Shown piece by piece: positions 1,497 through 45,299 of a stretch of DNA of 64,000 nt. The notes under the pieces are model-generated. The model saw only the letters and a list, made by a program, of their open reading frames with translations, was not told the DNA's origin and made no database searches. This DNA comes from a virus (lineage: Duplodnaviria > Caudoviricetes), in the IMG/VR virus record IMGVR_UViG_3300007177_000042, one strand, 5' to 3'. The first letter of the stretch is position 1. Each line of letters opens with the position of its first letter. A program made the translations under genes and the position numbers.

Positions 1497-1522
1497 TGGC
1501 GATAAATTGGTACAAATTTAAC

Positions 1523-1597
1523 GGGCGGTTAGCTCAGTGGAAGAGCAGATCCTTTACACGGATAAGGTCAGAGGTTCAAATCCTTTACCGCCTACCA
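1523..1597 (+). tRNA. trnV: tRNA-Val(TAC)
   Basis: Cloverleaf, loop TT-TAC-AC, TTCAAAT T loop, encoded CCA. Confidence 0.92.
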
Positions 1598-1604
1598 TTT
1601 TTAT

Positions 1605-1682
1605 CGGAGTGTAGCTCAACTTGGCTAGAGCGCTTGCTTTGGGAGCAAGAAGTTGCAGGTTCAAATCCTGTCACTCCGACCA
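1605..1682 (+). tRNA. trnP: tRNA-Pro(TGG), canonical
   Basis: CGGAGTG/CACTCCG acceptor, CTTGC/GCAAG stem, TGG anticodon, CCA. Confidence 0.93.
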
Positions 1683-1688
1683 TTTTAC

Positions 1689-1766
1689 GGTGATATAGAC
1701 CAACTGGAAGGAGTCGTTACTTTGAGAGAGTAAATAGTGCAGGTTCGAATCCTGTTATCACCACCA
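1689..1766 (+). tRNA. trnL: tRNA-Leu(GAG), short variable loop
   Basis: GGTGATA/TATCACC acceptor, TTACT/AGTAA stem, loop TT-GAG-AG, 5-nt variable loop ATAGT, CCA. Confidence 0.85.
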
Positions 1767-1769
1767 ATT

Positions 1770-1853
1770 CGGCATATGATGTAATAGAAGCCATGCGAGT
1801 CTTAGAAGCTCGTGGAGAAATCCGTGGGGGTGCAAGTCCCTCTATGCCGACCA
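1770..1853 (+). tRNA. trnL: tRNA-Leu(TAG)
   Basis: CGGCATA/TATGCCG acceptor, loop CT-TAG-AA, long variable arm, CCA. Confidence 0.85.
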
Positions 1854-1860
1854 ATTTAAT

Positions 1861-1938
1861 GGCTACGTAGACCAACCGGAAGGAGTCGTCTATCTCAAAA
1901 ATAGAATAGTGCTGGTTCGAATCCAGTCGTAGCTACCA
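1861..1938 (+). tRNA. trnL: tRNA-Leu(CAA), short variable loop
   Basis: GGCTACG/CGTAGCT acceptor, TCTAT/ATAGA stem, loop CT-CAA-AA, variable loop ATAGT, CCA. Confidence 0.85.
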
Positions 1939-1947
1939 ATTTATAAT

Positions 1948-2032
1948 GGGTGTGTGGACACGGCGAAACTGGAAGAAGCGTCTCATTTAAAACGAGAAGT
2001 CCTTGTGAGTTCGAATCTCACCACACCTACCA
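1948..2032 (+). tRNA. trnL: tRNA-Leu(TAA), atypical (about 6 extra nt before the D arm)
   Basis: GGGTGTG/CACACCT acceptor, loop TT-TAA-AA, GTGAG-TTCGAAT-CTCAC T arm, CCA. Confidence 0.72.
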
Positions 2033-2038
2033 ATTTAT

Positions 2039-2114
2039 GGGCTGGCATGTTCTAAGGGAGCGAGACTGTTTTGCAAACAATCTGTTGTGAGTTCGATTCT
2101 CATCTGGTCCACCA
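2039..2114 (+). tRNA. trnA: tRNA-Ala(TGC)
   Basis: G3:U70 wobble, loop TT-TGC-AA, T arm GTGAG-TTCGATT-CTCAT, CCA. Confidence 0.8.
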
Positions 2115-2126
2115 ATTTTTTTGCTA

Positions 2127-2220
2127 GTTTGAACGTAACCACATATTCATGTGGACGAGGGGACGACCCCGCTTAGACGCACTAAGAAGATTTGTTCTTA
2201 GTGGTAAGACGGCTTCAAAC
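2127..2220 (+). ncRNA. orphan multibranch RNA A
   Basis: Closing stem GTTTGAA/TTCAAAC around hairpins CCACAT/ATGTGG, GGGG/CCCC and CACTAAGAA/TTCTTAGTG. Confidence 0.55.
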
Positions 2221-2234
2221 GGTACACATTTTAT

Positions 2235-2324
2235 GGAAGGGTGGCTGAGTGGCTTAAGGCGTCGGTCTTGAAAACCGAAGGGGCCTCAAAACCTCCGGGG
2301 GTTCGAATCCCTCTCCTTCCTCCA
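2235..2324 (+). tRNA. trnS: tRNA-Ser(TGA)
   Basis: TCGGT/ACCGA stem, loop CT-TGA-AA, long variable arm, CCA. Confidence 0.92.
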
Positions 2325-2330
2325 ATTTAT

Positions 2331-2424
2331 GGATGGTAGACGAATAGTTAGTTAGTCGTATCTGTTTGCTAAACAGACGTGGCCTAAAAAACCACTGTGG
2401 GGGCAGCACCCACATCATCCGCCA
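2331..2424 (+). tRNA. trnS: tRNA-Ser(GCT), atypical D and T loops
   Basis: GGATGGT/ATCATCC acceptor, loop TT-GCT-AA, T loop GGCAGCA, CCA. Confidence 0.82.
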
Positions 2425-2430
2425 ATTTGT

Positions 2431-2517
2431 GGAACATAAACCGGACAGCCGTGCCGGAACTGATTCGAAATCAGATTGCACTATGTGTGTGGGGTTGAAG
2501 TCCTCTGTGTTCCGCCA
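2431..2517 (+). tRNA. trnS: tRNA-Ser(CGA), 8/4 fold
   Basis: 8-bp acceptor GGAACATA/TGTGTTCC, 4-bp T stem GGGG/CCTC, loop TT-CGA-AA, G73, CCA. Confidence 0.85.
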
Positions 2518-2519
2518 AT

Positions 2520-2607
2520 GGAGAGTAAACCAGTTAGGTACTGGGGTTGATTGGAAATCAGCACGCACCTTGAAAGGTGTGAGTTTCGAATACTCTGCTC
2601 TCCTCCA
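2520..2607 (+). tRNA. trnS: tRNA-Ser(GGA), 8/4 fold
   Basis: 8-bp acceptor GGAGAGTA/TGCTCTCC, 4-bp T stem GAGT/ACTC with loop TTCGAAT, loop TT-GGA-AA, CCA. Confidence 0.87.
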
Positions 2608-2623
2608 TTTAATAACACTCCAC

Positions 2624-2652
2624 TTGACATTGGAACCGAGAACTGATAGATT
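2624..2652 (+). promoter_or_regulatory. internal sigma70-like promoter in the tRNA array
   Basis: TTGACA-N17-TAGATT. Confidence 0.6.
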
Positions 2653-2696
2653 GATATCGTTCCTTGAAGAAATCGGAGATTGTCAAAAGATTTTAT

Positions 2697-2788
2697 GGTG
2701 AGGTGTCTGAGTGGTCTAAAGAGACAGTTTGCTAAACTGTTGTACGGTTAACCCCGTACCGAGGGTTCGAATCCCTCCCTCACCGCCA
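2697..2788 (+). tRNA. trnS: tRNA-Ser(GCT), canonical
   Basis: ACAGT/ACTGT stem, GCT anticodon, long variable arm, TTCGAAT T loop, CCA. Confidence 0.93.
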
Positions 2789-2793
2789 ATTTT

Positions 2794-2867
2794 GCGGGTA
2801 TAGCTCAATGGTAGAGTGTCAGTCTTCCAAACTGATTATGCGGGTTCAATTCCCGCTACCCGCTCCA
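2794..2867 (+). tRNA. trnG: tRNA-Gly(TCC)
   Basis: GCGGGTA/TACCCGC acceptor, loop CT-TCC-AA, U73, CCA. Confidence 0.93.
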
Positions 2868-2877
2868 AGTTTATGAC

Positions 2878-2951
2878 TGGGGATTTGCATAATGGTAGTG
2901 CAGGAGACTTTGGATCTCTTAGTGAAGGTTCGATTCCTTCATCCCCTGCCA
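2878..2951 (+). tRNA. trnQ: tRNA-Gln(TTG)
   Basis: Loop CT-TTG-GA, TTCGATT T loop, G73, CCA; U1-U72 mismatch. Confidence 0.88.
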
Positions 2952-2963
2952 ACATTTATATAT

Positions 2964-3061
2964 GTCAGTTAAGGGTCTAACTTTAGAGAAATTGTAACTA
3001 GTGATCATATGTTACAAAAGTAAATTCTAGTTGTCGAAAGGCACGTTGATCAAACACTGAC
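2964..3061 (+). ncRNA. orphan structured RNA C
   Basis: GTCAGT/ACTGAC closing stem, GGTC(T)AAC/GTTGATC, TGTAAC/GTTACA, TGTC-GAAA-GGCA GNRA hairpin. Confidence 0.55.
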
Positions 3062-3070
3062 TGAAATTTT

Positions 3071-3191
3071 GTTACGATAGATACATGGTAAACACAGTTA
3101 AGTGTTCGTGGAATCAAAATAATCGTCTAATAAATATAGGACGATAAATACCACCAAGATCGCATGTCGCTATAGCAAACTTTATCGTAAC
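3071..3191 (+). ncRNA. orphan structured RNA D
   Basis: GTTACGATA/TATCGTAAC closing stem, ACATG/CATGT, AACAC/GTGTT, GTGG/CCAC with inner TCGTC/GACGA. Confidence 0.6.
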
Positions 3192-3199
3192 GTTTTTAT

Positions 3200-3275
3200 C
3201 GGAGTGTAATGTCAAAAGTAGACGGCCTGTTTTGGAGACAGGAGGTTGAGATTGCGAAATTCTCCACTCCGACCA
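3200..3275 (+). tRNA. trnP: tRNA-Pro(TGG), atypical elbow
   Basis: CGGAGTG/CACTCCG acceptor, CCTGT/ACAGG stem, T loop TGCGAAA, no GG in D loop, CCA. Confidence 0.8.
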
Positions 3276-3325
3276 TTTTAATTTGTCTCGCCGAAAATAA
3301 CGGTTGCATATCTACCAAGTAAAAT

Positions 3326-3401
3326 CGGGCGTGAGGAAGATAGCTAATCCGCGCCGTTTGGGACGGCGAGACACCGGGAGCAATACCCGGACGCCCGACC
3401 A
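3326..3401 (+). tRNA. trnP: tRNA-Pro(TGG), atypical elbow
   Basis: CGGGCGT/ACGCCCG acceptor, CGCCG/CGGCG stem, T loop AGCAATA, CCA. Confidence 0.8.
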
Positions 3402-3406
3402 TTTAT

Positions 3407-3480
3407 TGGGGTTTAGTATAAAAGTATTATGGCTCGCTTTGAACGAGAGGACGGTGGAGCATTACCATCAACCCCAGCCA
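3407..3480 (+). tRNA. trnQ: tRNA-Gln(TTG), atypical elbow
   Basis: TGGGGTT/AACCCCA acceptor, loop CT-TTG-AA, T loop AGCATTA, CCA. Confidence 0.8.
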
Positions 3481-3490
3481 AATTAATAAT

Positions 3491-3594
3491 CAGCGTGTAG
3501 ACCAACATTAAAGAGTCAATTCCCACAAGGGAACAATGAGTGTGGCTTGAAAGAGATGTCTATGTGACAGGTGAAAATCCCACTACGCTGACCA
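3491..3594 (+). ncRNA. expanded tRNA-like RNA X1 (Leu-type scaffold, collapsed anticodon loop, 25-nt T-stem insertion)
   Basis: CAGCGTG/TACGCTG acceptor + ACCA; D arm TAGACC...GAGTC as in neighbouring Leu tRNAs; TTCCC-ACAA-GGGAA; GTGG[25 nt]G-TGAAAAT-CCCAC. Confidence 0.6.
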
Positions 3595-3636
3595 TTTATT
3601 TAAAATCAAAACTATTTATTGCGTAGGAGTTCAATT

Positions 3637-3861
3637 ATGAATATCAAAAACGCAATAAAAATGTTTGTAGTCACAAATTTATGTTTGTTGACATTAACCG
3701 CTGCCGGATTTCAAACGGAAAAATCAATTGAGACGTATAGAAAAAATTATACATCGTTGGTTTCTAAATGGAAGAAAGAAAAAAACGTTGAAAAGAAGAA
3801 AATTCTTCGTCAACAAATTGAACAGTTGAAAGAAAACAATGTTCATCTGTTCAAAAAGTAA
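3637..3861 (+). CDS. small Lys-rich hypothetical protein with hydrophobic N-terminus
   Basis: AGGAG RBS before ATG 3637 (track start 3619 is a non-ATG extension). Confidence 0.65.
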   Translation: MNIKNAIKMFVVTNLCLLTLTAAGFQTEKSIETYRKNYTSLVSKWKKEKNVEKKKILRQQIEQLKENNVHLFKK

Positions 3862-3866
3862 TTTAT

Positions 3867-3940
3867 TGGGGATTAGTATAAAAGCATTATAACTGACTCT
3901 GAATCAGAAGAAGGTGGAGCATTACCATCATCCCCAGCCA
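3867..3940 (+). tRNA. trnQ: tRNA-Gln(CTG), atypical elbow
   Basis: TGGGGAT/ATCCCCA acceptor, loop CT-CTG-AA, T loop AGCATTA, CCA. Confidence 0.82.
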
Positions 3941-3962
3941 ATTTTGTTACTATTTATACAAT

Positions 3963-4322
3963 ATGATAAAAGCAATCTTAACAAGTATGTTATTGTCCAT
4001 ATCAGTAATGGCATCAGAAAAAACATTGTTGAGTGAGGTTATAGATTTGACCAAAGAGAAAATTTCAAATGAAATCATTGTTGATTATATCAAGACGAAA
4101 CCATTGTTGATTAAGTTATCTGCTCAGAATATAATTGAATTAAAGAAAGAAAAAGTTGATGATGCGGTTGTGAAATTTTTGATTCAAAAGTCTGAGTATG
4201 AAGAGAAGATTAAACTGGTGTTGGATAACTATGACAAAATAGTTGAATATAACAACTACATATATTTTCAAAAAACATATTTGGAGCCGAGAGCAAAAGC
4301 TATGGCTGTCAAATATAATTGA
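3963..4322 (+). CDS. hypothetical protein with signal-peptide-like N-terminus
   Basis: 119-aa ORF, MIKAILTSMLLSISVMA hydrophobic leader, preceded by CTATTTATAC. Confidence 0.7.
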   Translation: MIKAILTSMLLSISVMASEKTLLSEVIDLTKEKISNEIIVDYIKTKPLLIKLSAQNIIELKKEKVDDAVVKFLIQKSEYEEKIKLVLDNYDKIVEYNNYIYFQKTYLEPRAKAMAVKYN

Positions 4323-4323
4323 A

Positions 4324-4638
4324 TTTGACACAAGTGACTCTACGCTGGTGTAAATAACACTAGAGGAAGTTCGCTGCTGCACAGCAGATGATTGGGAGGA
4401 CATAAGTTAACTTCAAATTGCCCACAACGATTAAAAGATTGCAATTCCGTGGAAGCAAGGAGCAATCCGGTTAACCTCAGTCCGTTAAAACCACAAATTA
4501 GCAGTAATCCTAAATAACCCGAGTGTAGTGCTGCACGTTGAAGGGTGAGGTTGGAGCAGTTGTTTTTAACGAACAACCAGTAGTAATACTGAGAGAAATG
4601 TAGGGATAAAACAGAACAGCGGCTATGGCTGTGTCAAA
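4324..4638 (+). ncRNA. rnpB: RNase P RNA
   Basis: P1 TTTGACACA/TGTGTCAAA; P4 GAGGAAGTTCGCTG (4363-4376) pairs with ACAGAACAGCGGCTAT (4611-4626) with the bulged U; about 315 nt. Confidence 0.85.
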
Positions 4639-4644
4639 AATCTT

Positions 4645-4726
4645 GTGGTGGTTTGACCACGGCGTGAGGGACACGATACACCCCTGTATGTCTGACCCGG
4701 ACGAAACGACCCGTAAGGGTAGGGTT
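4645..4726 (+). promoter_or_regulatory. structured leader upstream of feoA (riboswitch-like candidate)
   Basis: Three hairpins; the last 3' strand AGGGTT lies 8 nt before the ATG. Confidence 0.45.
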
Positions 4727-4734
4727 GAATTTTG

Positions 4735-4944
4735 ATGAAAACATACAAGTTAACAGAGCTTAAAGCCGGAGAAAAAGGGCGAATTGTTGAAGTTAACATT
4801 GATAGTCAACGGTTAAAAGAACTTGGCATTATTCGTGGTGCAATTATAACCGTAGTTACAAACAATTTAATTTGTATGATTTGTAATACCCGAATTTGTT
4901 TGGGTAAACCGATGACAGACAATATCATCGTTGAAAAGATGTGA
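4735..4944 (+). CDS. feoA: FeoA-domain (SH3-like ferrous iron transport) protein
   Basis: LTELKAGEKGRIVEV...RLKELGIIRGAIITVV...RICLG...IIVE matches the FeoA pattern. Confidence 0.8.
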   Translation: MKTYKLTELKAGEKGRIVEVNIDSQRLKELGIIRGAIITVVTNNLICMICNTRICLGKPMTDNIIVEKM

Positions 4945-5069
4945 TCGTTGGTGTATAGAATTATAGCACGCTACACGTTGAGAGGGTAGAGGAGATCGAA
5001 GTTGACGGGTTAGACATTATCAGGAACGTTTCGTGAAATCCCCGTATATTCGCAAGTCACGGTCATCCA
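4942..5069 (+). ncRNA. expanded tRNA-like RNA X2
   Basis: Acceptor TGATCGT/ACGGTCA + TCCA; D arm GTGT/GCAC; CTAC/GTAG arm containing TTGAGAG; T arm replaced by a longer domain with ACGGG/CCCGT. Confidence 0.5.
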
Positions 5070-5071
5070 AT

Positions 5072-5158
5072 TTCACAAACACCCGATTGGAGGATTCCTT
5101 AAGGGTTTGGGCGCATGTGCCGCACAGCTTTTTAGCGTATAATAGCACGGTTTGTGAA
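5072..5158 (+). ncRNA. orphan structured RNA E
   Basis: TTCACAAAC/GTTTGTGAA closing stem, CCCGA/TTGGG, GTGC/GCAC, GCT-TTTT-AGC. Confidence 0.45.
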
Positions 5159-5167
5159 TGTTTTCTT

Positions 5168-5196
5168 TTGACAAACACTATATATTGGTGTATGTT
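5168..5196 (+). promoter_or_regulatory. sigma70-like promoter
   Basis: TTGACA-N17-TATGTT. Confidence 0.6.
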
Positions 5197-5204
5197 GTTT
5201 TTAT

Positions 5205-5279
5205 GGGCTGGTGGTGCTAATGGTAACACAACTCGTTTGCACCGAGTGGTTAGGAGTTCGATTCTCCTCCGGTCCACCA
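5205..5279 (+). tRNA. trnA: tRNA-Ala(TGC)
   Basis: G3:U70, ACTCG/CGAGT stem, loop TT-TGC-AC, CCA. Confidence 0.9.
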
Positions 5280-5289
5280 ATTTTAGAGC

Positions 5290-5363
5290 GCGGGTATGAT
5301 GTAGTGGTAGCCTGCAACCTTGCCAAGGTCGATGTGCCGGTTCGATTCCGGCTACCCGCTCCA
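5290..5363 (+). tRNA. trnG: tRNA-Gly(GCC)
   Basis: GCGGGTA/TACCCGC acceptor, loop TT-GCC-AA, U73, CCA. Confidence 0.92.
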
Positions 5364-5371
5364 AACTTAAC

Positions 5372-5400
5372 AAGGCCTGTATTACACAGGCCTTTTTTTT
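5372..5400 (+). terminator. intrinsic terminator ending the tRNA array
   Basis: AAGGCCTGT...ACAGGCCTT followed by a T run. Confidence 0.85.
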
Positions 5401-5412
5401 ATGTAAAATGTT

Positions 5413-6159
5413 ATGACATGCGATGTTGGCGCAGTAGCGATAGTTTATCAAAAACAAGTACAGTCTAGTATCGAAATGATAAAATCATTTCGACAAAACA
5501 ATCAATCATCTACGATAGTGTTATGTACGGATGGATTGGTTGATGAGATTGACGATATATGTAAAGAATATTCGTGTTCAGCGGTGATCAATCACAATCA
5601 ATTGGGTTATCCAGCCAGTCATGATATTGAAATTCCAATCGAATATTTTCGTAGGTTATTATTGGCGTCACAATTGATATCAGAAAAATACTTCATAAAC
5701 CTTGAGCCAGATTGTTTGGTAACAGGAAAAATAACGATACCATATGAGGATTATGATTTCATCATCAACCAAGATCCAACTGTACAGTGGTTATATTACT
5801 TTGAGGGAAAAGACATTCTACGATCTTCAATCATTGATAATGTTTTGAACTACTACAAAAATAACAACGTTTATAGCGAACAGCTATTTGACAAAATAAT
5901 GGGTGGGGGAGGCGACATTTACAACAAGAATATAACGGACAAAATATTACATGAATGGCAATTGTTTAAAACCCGTGCATACGATTTTAAACATTTATGT
6001 GAATCTGCACAAAAAGTATGGTATCATGACATGATTGTATCGTTTCAGGTCCCCTTTCATTGCAAATCAAGATACTGGGGTATAGATTATGCAGAACGAA
6101 CAAAGGATTTGAATTTGTCAGACAGAATTTTTCATAGGTGTAAGCAGTTTTACACATAA
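5413..6159 (+). CDS. hypothetical protein, possibly GT-A fold glycosyltransferase
   Basis: IVLCTDG and FINLEPDCLV (DxD-like) motifs; family call is weak. Confidence 0.45.
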   Translation: MTCDVGAVAIVYQKQVQSSIEMIKSFRQNNQSSTIVLCTDGLVDEIDDICKEYSCSAVINHNQLGYPASHDIEIPIEYFRRLLLASQLISEKYFINLEPDCLVTGKITIPYEDYDFIINQDPTVQWLYYFEGKDILRSSIIDNVLNYYKNNNVYSEQLFDKIMGGGGDIYNKNITDKILHEWQLFKTRAYDFKHLCESAQKVWYHDMIVSFQVPFHCKSRYWGIDYAERTKDLNLSDRIFHRCKQFYT

Positions 6160-6180
6160 AATTCAATGGAATGAACGATC

Positions 6181-6208
6181 TTGACATCACACAACAAAAG
6201 TGTAAGAT
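6181..6208 (+). promoter_or_regulatory. sigma70-like promoter upstream of tmRNA
   Basis: TTGACA-N16-TAAGAT. Confidence 0.5.
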
Positions 6209-6266
6209 AGAATTTGAATACGATCCAAATATGTGATAATAGTTATTAACGGTTCTTTTACAATAT

Positions 6267-6650
6267 GGGCGTGTACTGGTTTCGATTCAAAAATGTAGGT
6301 GTGCTAGGCACGTAGAGGACGATAGTTGGCCTCTTTAATCATCTATCAAAATATAACTGCTAACAAGAAGAGCAAAGTAGTAAGCTACGACTTCACTTCC
6401 CGTGAGGCCGTTGCTCTCGCAGCCTAAGTTGCTGCACATCTTTTATGATGATGTCTGATAATTGTAAAAGATGATAAACATCAGGCTAGATAACAATTTG
6501 TTTGGGATTGTTGTTGATCTTCTACCAGACACCATCAACATAAAGTTTGTTGTTTTAGATTTGTGTTGATGTAACAAAAAACAACTAAGCGTGTAGTCTG
6601 GTATACTTTAAGTTTTGAAGACGCGAGTTCGACTCTCGCCACGTCCACCA
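6267..6650 (+). ncRNA. ssrA: tmRNA; tag peptide ANKKSKVVSYDFTSREAVALAA
   Basis: 5' GGGCGTGTACTGGTTTCGA, 3' GCGAG-TTCGACT-CTCGC-CACGTCCACCA with G3:U; tag ORF 6359-6427 after ATAACT, ending ALAA-stop. Confidence 0.93.
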
Positions 6651-6706
6651 ATTTTCTTTATTTTCTGTTTTGGTTATACTAGTTATATCTAGAAAGGTTA
6701 TTAACT

Positions 6707-44075: not shown

Positions 44076-45299
44076 ATGCACATTTCTGCACAAATTAACG
44101 CACAAAAATTTTATACCAAATACTGCACCAATTTATCAAAAAACGCAGTTGTTATTGATTTTGGTTCTTATGACATCAATGGAACATTAAAACCTATATT
44201 TGAGAAACACAAGTATATCGGTATTGATATGTGTCCGGGACCAAATGTCGATATTGTATGTAAAAACGAGAGCACGCCGTTCAAAGACGAATCCGCCGAC
44301 ATAATTACATCTTCATCCTGTTTCGAACACGATGAGTTTTATTGGATAACATTTTTAGAAATGTGTCGTTTGATTAAGACTGGTGGATACATTTACATTC
44401 AGGCACCGTCAAATGGCAGATACCATGCATGTCCACAAGATTGTTGGAGATTTTACGCAGATAGTTGGAAGTCGTTGGAAAAATGGGCCAGAAAAAACAA
44501 TTACGACATCAGTCTTGTTGAAAGTTATGTAGATAAAGAAAATAGTCATACAGACCCAGATCTGTGGGAAGATTCGATTGGAATTTTCAGGAAGAATAAG
44601 AGTTTTGACGACACGTATGTTGATATTTTTTGTAAATCAACCAATAAACAAATTTATAAATGGGATTCTTATTTCACAAAGTATCATCGATATTTTTCCA
44701 AGTATCAGAATAAGTTTGTAAGAATTCTAGAAATAGGTGTAGACAAAGGTGGTTCTCTTCAAATGTGGAAAAATTACTTTGGAGAAAATGCAAAAATCGT
44801 AGGAATTGACATTAATCCAGAATCAAAACAATACGAAGACACAAATATTACCATCGAAATCGGTGATCAAAACGATCCTATTTTTATGAGATCTATTGTT
44901 GATAAATACAAATCGTTCGACGTGATTATTGACGATGGATCACATGTCAACTCACATCAACTTTTTAGTTTCGATTTTCTATTTGATTATTTGAACGATG
45001 GTGGTATTTATCTCATCGAAGACATTCACACCTCATATTGGGAGTATTTTGGTGGAGGATACAAAAATCCAAATACAATGATTGAATTTTCAAAAAATCT
45101 GATCGATGACATAAATGGATATATTCAATCACCACAAAGAATAAACAAATACACCAATACAATTTCGGATATTCATTTTGCGTGTGGAATGGTTTTTATT
45201 GAAAAACAACAACTTAAACACACTCCACATGATATATTGATACAGTCGGGAAATATTATTGATTCACAACGACACTTACCAAAAAAACCAGTTATATGA
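44076..45299 (+). CDS. two-domain class I SAM methyltransferase
   Basis: N-domain VIDFGSYDING...FEHD; C-domain ILEIGVDKGGSLQMW...IIDDGSH. Confidence 0.82.
   Translation: MHISAQINAQKFYTKYCTNLSKNAVVIDFGSYDINGTLKPIFEKHKYIGIDMCPGPNVDIVCKNESTPFKDESADIITSSSCFEHDEFYWITFLEMCRLIKTGGYIYIQAPSNGRYHACPQDCWRFYADSWKSLEKWARKNNYDISLVESYVDKENSHTDPDLWEDSIGIFRKNKSFDDTYVDIFCKSTNKQIYKWDSYFTKYHRYFSKYQNKFVRILEIGVDKGGSLQMWKNYFGENAKIVGIDINPESKQYEDTNITIEIGDQNDPIFMRSIVDKYKSFDVIIDDGSHVNSHQLFSFDFLFDYLNDGGIYLIEDIHTSYWEYFGGGYKNPNTMIEFSKNLIDDINGYIQSPQRINKYTNTISDIHFACGMVFIEKQQLKHTPHDILIQSGNIIDSQRHLPKKPVI

Follow-up and report, generated by a model that had tools for sequence, protein, structure and literature searches.

RNA D, a candidate structured small RNA gene in the tRNA array of an uncultured T4-like phage

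Introduction

RNAC and RNAD of phage T4 are small non-tRNA RNAs of a phage tRNA cluster that have been known since the 1970s. Their transcripts arise from the tRNA region, and what they do has remained unexplained after decades (PMC3014915, PMC9697503). The locus described here raises a related question in an uncultured phage, namely whether a 121-nt stretch lying between the genes of a tRNA array, which we call RNA D, is a structured RNA gene or a piece of spacer. The window, i.e., the whole stretch of 64,000 nucleotides that was analyzed, is taken, in reverse orientation, from a 111.7-kb IMG/VR virus record whose estimated completeness is 36% (genome G000). The phage has T4-type versions of the terminase, portal, baseplate wedge and major head protein, and its nearest isolates, at ~56% capsid identity, are Microcystis phage Mel-JY01 and the Flavobacterium immuto phages. 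The RNA island of the window occupies bases 1500–6700, in which ARAGORN finds 13 tRNAs and a tmRNA (transfer-messenger RNA) and the sensitive mode of Rfam adds non-canonical tRNA-like genes. Two of the latter (3407–3477 and 3867–3937) score 39–40 bits with the Rfam tRNA model in sensitive mode only and are both missed by ARAGORN.

Besides the window copy, RNA D was found in G006, an IMG/VR phage contig of 303.5 kb that is 89% complete (locus L028), and in L133, a metagenome contig of 110 kb. Judged by the comparison of these copies, RNA D is a real, discrete and conserved element and probably a small RNA gene; with three copies at hand we present it as a candidate, not as a discovery. Below we describe its place in the array, its predicted fold, the pattern of change among the copies, its distribution and its relation to known RNAs, and weigh other explanations where the evidence bears on them. 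The features discussed are collected in Table 1.

Table 1. Features of the RNA D locus, its relatives and its surroundings (window coordinates unless a locus is named).
Feature	Position	Strand	Remarks
RNA D	3071-3191	+	121 nt; candidate structured small RNA gene, single copy per genome
RNA D copy, G006	L028:1325-1444	-	90.2% identical to the window copy
RNA D copy, L133	L133:450-570	-	93.4% identical to the window copy
RNA D 5' spacer	3062-3070	+	9 nt, AU-rich, TGAAATTTT / UGAAAUUUU; after the ACTGAC end of RNA C
RNA D 3' spacer	3192-3199	+	8 nt, GTTTTTAT / GUUUUUAU; before tRNA-Pro' (start 3200)
P1 (predicted 11-bp closing helix)	3071-3081 / 3181-3191	+	joins the RNA D ends; present in 3/3 copies
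P2 (predicted)	3083-3087 / 3163-3167	+	ACATG / CATGT; invariant
P3 hairpin (predicted)	3091-3106	+	AACAC 3091-3095, loop agttaa, GTGTT 3102-3106
P4 (predicted)	3108-3111 / 3151-3154	+	GTGG / CCAC; encloses P5; span 3108-3154
P5 (predicted)	3124-3128 / 3139-3143	+	CGUCU / GGACG; also given as (T)CGTC 3123-3127 / GACG(A) 3140-3144
tRNA-Gln(UUG)	2878-2951	+	followed directly by RNA D in L133 and G006; RNA C intervenes in the window
RNA C	2964-3061	+	sister orphan module closed by GTCAGT / ACTGAC
tRNA-Pro'	3200-3276	+	non-canonical tRNA-Pro(UGG)-like gene; 7-bp acceptor stem, anticodon arm with UGG loop, ACCA
Probable relic of the RNA D 5' end	3942-3960	+	16/19 bases, TTTTGTTACTATTTATACA; 0.03 expected by chance
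Nearest upstream sigma-70-like promoter match	2624-2652	+	TTGACA-17-TAGATT with TG; consensus match only
First downstream intrinsic-terminator-like site	5372-5394	+	strong stem, 9 pairs
Layout, window (G000)			Gln - C - D - Pro'
Layout, L133			Gln - D - Pro'
Layout, G006			Gln - D - C - feoA
Layout, G009 (capsid 94% identical) and L143			Gln - Pro', neither C nor D

Position and ends of RNA D in the array

A sequence-only reading of the window had placed an orphan RNA between RNA C, 9 nt upstream of it, and tRNA-Pro, 8 nt downstream, and had described it as packed like a gene of the array. The spacing is read directly in the sequence, and the description is borne out by two other phages, in which RNA D recurs as a discrete unit whose ends are unchanged. 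The copies are 120–121 nt long, and all three have U at position −1 and G at position +1, as do the array tRNAs; the start of RNA D is preceded by the same AUUUU spacer that precedes the neighboring tRNAs. At the other end, the 3′ spacer of L133 equals that of the window and the spacer of G006 differs (AUCUAU). In L133 and G006 the gap from the CCA of tRNA-Gln to RNA D is 4–6 nt. The ends of RNA D are identical in three contexts while the flanks differ beyond them, and in every layout the element has the orientation of the tRNAs. RNA D shares with the tRNA and tRNA-like genes of the array their strand, the context of AUUUU followed by G, the paired ends and the modular gain and loss. It carries no CCA at its 3′ end, a triplet that every canonical tRNA of the array encodes. 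The gene downstream of it in the window, tRNA-Pro′, was missed by ARAGORN and Rfam and yet is 94–99% identical in at least six other contigs, being better kept than the canonical tRNAs.

The signal scan found no promoter or terminator belonging to RNA D itself. Since RNA D has no signals of its own and lies between the promoter match at 2624 and the terminator-like site at 5372, we infer that it is co-transcribed with the tRNAs. RNA D was also considered as a promoter and as an intrinsic terminator and rejected as either; the scan does not call it, and the U run after P1 is missing in G006.

Such a placement would also suit an element that acts in cis on the processing or stability of the tRNA precursor and is then excised as a piece with no later role. 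A P1-closed domain downstream of tRNA-Gln would then set the nuclease cut sites, and it may shield the precursor from 3′ exonucleases until RNase P acts. All copies of RNA D, as well as the relic at 3942–3960, lie downstream of a Gln-type tRNA (directly so in L133, in G006 and at the relic), and both the U(−1)/G(+1) spacer context shared with tRNAs and the lack of separate signals agree with this account. However, G009 and L143 have the same kind of tRNA-Gln directly before tRNA-Pro′ with no such element in between, the window tolerates RNA C between tRNA-Gln and RNA D, and a mere nuclease block needs no invariant junction and internal-loop sequences. We therefore consider a purely cis-acting role unlikely.

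Predicted fold

Every stem named in the sequence-only reading is found at 3071–3191. The core of the closing helix P1 consists of 9 perfect base pairs formed by GTTACGATA (3071–3079) and TATCGTAAC (3183–3191), and the helix reaches 11 bp via G3080–U3182 and A3081–U3181. By itself, the closing stem is within chance expectation: perfect 9-bp inverted repeats with arms 60–140 nt apart occur 58 times in the window, compared to ~34 in shuffles, and a perfect 9-bp closing stem appears in 411 of 5000 shuffles (8%) of the 248-nt gap from tRNA to tRNA. When this gap is excised and folded, RNA C and RNA D form two independent domains.

The fold energies lead to a similar assessment. The z-scores of RNA D are modest, ranging from −2.1 to −2.5, and for the window copy they are −2.1 for the plus strand and −2.65 for the minus strand. 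The minimum free energy (MFE) structure has an ensemble frequency of 0.005, the interior being thermodynamically ill-defined, and MFE folds predicted from each copy singly have P1 in common and differ inside it. RNAalifold prefers an alternative pairing over P2. Taken from a single sequence, the structure of RNA D is weakly beyond chance; the support for the element comes from the comparison with the two other copies and not from the single-sequence fold.

Conservation and the pattern of change

The pairwise identities among the three copies of RNA D are 90.2%, 93.4% and 88.5%. Between G000 and G006, protein genes have 65–70% nucleotide identity where blastn aligns them, and when the window is compared with 60 kb of G006 its best-kept stretch is RNA D. 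Other RNA elements of the two genomes are 93% (tRNA-Gln), 86% (RNA C), 84% (putative RNase P RNA) and 73% (tmRNA) identical, and feoA is 60% identical at the nucleotide level, 53% at the amino acid level and 33%, i.e., saturated, at third codon positions. Given this saturation in the adjacent feoA, RNA D is kept about as well as tRNA-Gln, and by this comparison its evolution is about as slow as that of a true tRNA gene of the same block. The high identity could in part stem from recent lateral exchange of the Gln–D block.

The changes that have occurred are unevenly placed. The alignment has 16 variable columns, and these affect 2 of 60 paired but 14 of 62 unpaired columns (Fisher p = 0.002; p = 0.014 without the uncertain P2). 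Both paired changes fall in P1, where U–A becomes U–G at 3072/3190 and G–U becomes G–C at 3080/3182, and both keep the pairing on the plus strand only, the reverse strand having A–C mismatches. Because they are compatible with pairing on the plus strand alone, these changes point to the tRNA strand as the functional one. Standard pairs occupy 90 of the 90 pair cells of the three copies. Pairs changed on both sides number zero and one-sided, pair-keeping changes number two among these three copies, all of which are at least 88% identical. The absence of compensatory covariation follows from the use of three close copies only, and it confines positive support to P1 with its two one-sided changes. 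The stems proposed in the sequence-only reading are consequently supported to different degrees: P1 has some positive support, the nested junctions (P2 to P5) are consistent with the data, and P2 among them is a predicted pairing only. An outcome that would have refuted that reading, a spacer RNA without structural conservation, does not agree with identities of 90–93% and with variation that avoids the predicted helices.

Variation within RNA D is greatest in the P5 loop, on the 5′ side of the internal loop between P4 and P5, in the loop of P3 and in the bulge of 13 nt that separates P2 from P1. The stem of P3 is invariant, and its loop varies by a U to A change in G006. Invariant in the three copies though unpaired are GUA, AUAAAUA (the 3′ side of the internal loop), CAAGA and CGCAUGU, which suggests that RNA D adopts a specific tertiary fold or has a protein partner and does not act by simple antisense pairing. 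One antisense target was examined and set aside: the invariant segment GAUAAAUACCACCA is perfectly complementary over 14 nt to positions 44999–45012, a match within the range of shuffles (13/200). The complementary site sits in a methyltransferase-like open reading frame (ORF) at 44076–45299 and is not conserved at the corresponding position in G006.

The three copies share no conserved ORF. The plus-strand reading frame differs in length among them (20, 12 and 10 aa), and the minus-strand ORF undergoes radical substitutions. The proposal that RNA D encodes a micro-peptide (MVNTVKC..., 3085–3147) can point to an ATG and first seven codons that are identical in 3/3 copies. The differing lengths of this frame, however, are owing to a frameshift and a new stop, no Shine-Dalgarno-like sequence precedes the ATG, and the start codon lies within the predicted P2, all of which make a peptide product highly improbable.

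Distribution among phages

The copies of RNA D were found by pattern scans and by anchors, exactly one per genome. Scans of IMG/VR with 18–22-mers from the conserved blocks returned G006 only, plus chance matches in L036 and L037; the same scans of metagenomes gave one real new copy, that of L133, and of GTDB genomes three chance matches only. An inverted-repeat pattern scan of IMG/VR gave 19 loci, which we regard as chance matches because none aligns with RNA D. With tRNA-Gln, tRNA-Pro′ and RNA C as anchors, the scans recovered arrays without RNA D, or G006 only, and with the flanking protein at 5413–6159 as anchor they recovered no relatives. A covariance model (R1), used at E ≤ 0.1 and with positive controls that worked, found no RNA D in 84 related IMG/VR records that had been reached via the major capsid protein (MCP) and other loci, nor in 20 further loci, T4, Microcystis phage Mel-JY01, Flavobacterium phage immuto and the uncultured phage LR756508. 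Among GenBank phages searched by blastn, only the tRNA-Pro′ part of the region was matched, in Ralstonia phage RsoM2USA.

RNA D is thus absent from ~90 related records and loci, including three complete genomes of 350–370 kb, and it is also absent from G009, the closest relative by capsid (94% at the amino acid level). This patchy distribution indicates that RNA D is dispensable.

Polymorphism of this kind might instead reflect an element that acts at the level of DNA, be it a miniature inverted-repeat mobile element or a site for recombination or an endonuclease. The perfect 9-bp terminal inverted repeat, the presence or absence of RNA D among relatives and its changing order with respect to RNA C would all be accommodated in this way. 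A mobile element is difficult to reconcile, however, with a single copy per genome even in the 89%-complete, 303-kb G006, with the lack of target-site duplications at three junctions and with an element that is never inverted. Moreover, the changes in the repeat give U–G and G–C on the plus strand and A–C mismatches on the other, which fits RNA pairing and not DNA symmetry, and the 19 other inverted-repeat matches of IMG/VR are unrelated. A DNA-level element is very unlikely on this evidence.

A mosaic array with relics of orphan RNAs

Compared with L124 (the G009 locus), L028 and L133, the tRNA array at 1500–5400 is a mosaic in which orders and subsets differ per relative. The modules include tRNAs, orphan RNAs, an 80-aa ORF with a signal peptide (3619–3861), feoA and the putative RNase P RNA, and those that are common to the arrays have diverged far less than the protein genes around them. 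feoA (4735–4944; Pfam FeoA, E = 9e-13) has its G006 counterpart at L028:996-1205(-), with no feoB nearby, and the sequences upstream of the two are entirely different, consisting of a GC-rich leader in the window and of RNA C in G006. This RNA C copy (L028:1211-1316(-)) is 86% identical to that of the window, follows RNA D and lies 9 nt before the feoA start codon. RNA C is absent from the examined part of L133.

Both orphan RNAs seem to have left traces where they are no longer intact. G009 retains the last 23 nt of RNA C (ATCAAACACTGACTGAAATTTT) at L124:1066-1092(-), just upstream of the putative RNase P RNA. In the window itself, the probable relic at 3942–3960 matches the spacer together with the 15 nt that begin RNA D. 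Upstream, this stretch adjoins the CCA of another Gln-type, non-canonical tRNA (3867–3940), and downstream it runs to the ATG of an ORF at 3963–4322. It looks like a remnant of a second Gln–D unit that was overwritten by an ORF module. The relics of RNA C and RNA D argue that such modules are gained and lost by recombination, and from the adjacency of the copies and of the relic to Gln-type tRNAs the ancestral unit seems to have been tRNA-Gln followed by RNA D.

In so fluid an array RNA D may be a functionless passenger whose identity among genomes reflects the recent exchange of a piece of the mosaic and not selection, the exchange proceeding, e.g., by recombination or by homing-endonuclease co-conversion as in the T4 segB region. 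SegB is described as driving the inheritance of the T4 tRNA region (PMC2330249). In favor of a passenger, the distribution is patchy and does not follow capsid phylogeny, since G009 (94% MCP identity) lacks RNA D and the far more distant G006 has it; the adjacent tRNA-Gln is also unusually similar between G000 and G006 (93%), and the two relics (L124:1066-1092 and 3942–3960) show that illegitimate recombination breaks modules. The ~10% divergence, however, is unevenly spread between paired and unpaired columns, as described above, with stem changes that keep the pairing. Furthermore, no copy departs from the common orientation, the unit has exactly the same ends in three contexts and no homing endonuclease gene is seen among the array ORFs. 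That RNA D is without function is, in our judgment, an unlikely explanation.

Relation to known RNAs

The sequence-only reading had called RNA D an orphan, and the Rfam search bears this out. RNA D matches no Rfam 15 family, either at gathering thresholds or at E ≤ 10 over 5.4 kb; when the 261-nt region was searched alone at E ≤ 10, the only match was SNORD24 (15.4 bits against a gathering threshold of 41, E = 7). Neither ARAGORN nor the Rfam tRNA model (RF00005) at E ≤ 10 calls RNA D as a tRNA. A derivation from a tRNA was likewise considered and rejected, as the sequence cannot be drawn as a cloverleaf, a T arm and a CCA are both lacking, and the loop of P5 is variable, with 10–12 nt and not the 7 nt of an anticodon loop.

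The closest parallels in placement are RNAC and RNAD of T4. In T4 (AF158101), tRNA-Arg is followed by rnaD (119 nt) and then by rnaC (139 nt), with spacers of 1 nt and 6 nt. T4 RNAD is also known as species 2 and T4 RNAC as species 1, and with its 120–121 nt the RNA D described here is close to the former. In both phages non-tRNA RNAs lie in a tRNA cluster, on the tRNA strand, in a genome with T4-type structural genes; in both, two different RNAs are paired (RNAD with RNAC in T4, RNA C with RNA D here) at 1–12 nt from a tRNA and from each other, and no promoter of their own is annotated for the T4 RNAs, as is the case for RNA D. The molecules themselves differ. T4 RNAC has a T arm of the tRNA type (CCGGGTTCGAATCCCGG / GGTTCGAATCC) and RNA D has none; the annotated 3′ end of T4 RNAD is CACC, with AA immediately following, whereas RNA D lacks CCA; and the fold of T4 RNAD is not closed by its ends, unlike that of RNA D with its predicted P1. 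With filters off, model R1 gave no match over T4 rnaC/rnaD (L132:1909-2172), and over the whole T4 genome its only match was one of 17 bits elsewhere. Judged by sequence and model, RNA D is not of the T4 RNAC/RNAD family, and the resemblance is one of placement, size and pairing with a second orphan RNA.

ROOL and GOLLD are orphan structured phage RNAs of unknown function that are often found near tRNA islands (PMC12286853). They are 5–7 times larger than RNA D, have complex folds supported by covariation and are represented in Rfam, in contrast to RNA D. In size and shape RNA D resembles the Y RNAs and bacterial YrlA, small RNAs bound by Ro60 that have ~100–120 nt, paired ends, a long closing stem and a branched interior. 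Some Y RNAs and YrlA RNAs are encoded by phages and lie near tRNAs. RNA D differs from them in having no tRNA-like module, and a Y RNA identity was rejected given that there is no Rfam match and no TROVE/Ro60 gene in the phage genomes G000 and G006; PF05731 (TROVE) is absent from G000 and from the 89%-complete G006, in a search for which control genomes gave matches, though a Ro60 partner could be encoded by the host.

Proposed maturation and role

The reading that we favor, and hold to be somewhat probable, is that RNA D is a structured non-coding RNA gene of ~120 nt in the tRNA operon, whose product is cut from the tRNA precursor and acts in trans. The precursor would be polycistronic, and RNase P would cut it where tRNA-Pro′ begins, thereby releasing RNA D on its 3′ side. 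RNase P may possibly also cut at G3071 itself, and the cleavage may be carried out by the phage's own putative RNase P RNA; recognition of the RNA D 5′ end by RNase P is nevertheless doubtful because RNA D encodes no CCA. RNase E or an exonuclease would act in the AU-rich spacers. The 11-bp P1 would then tie both ends together and stop exonucleases, such that a stable RNA of ~121 nt could accumulate. RNA D would subsequently act in trans via its invariant junctions, most likely by binding a protein.

A broader proposal, which we think quite unlikely, is that RNA D, RNA C and other orphan slots of the array make up a new class of trans-acting phage RNAs that are matured by the tRNA-processing machinery with the help of a private RNA toolkit. 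This toolkit would comprise a reduced, putative RNase P RNA, the tmRNA and tRNAs with remodeled elbows. Under this proposal RNA D might serve as a decoy or inhibitor that binds a host protein, either of an RNA-targeting defense or of RNA processing, via its invariant A-rich junctions. If the proposal were true, giant phages would in general use their tRNA arrays as platforms for expressing counter-defense RNAs, and T4 RNAC and RNAD would gain a testable function by analogy.

Significance

What RNA D adds to the long-standing case of T4 is an unrelated RNA that occupies the same placement in a distant, uncultured, giant T4-like phage, which suggests that tRNA operons have been used repeatedly to express other small RNAs. 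RNA D contributes a candidate RNA family for curation of the Rfam type, and it offers a second, independent system for studying the role of such RNAs.
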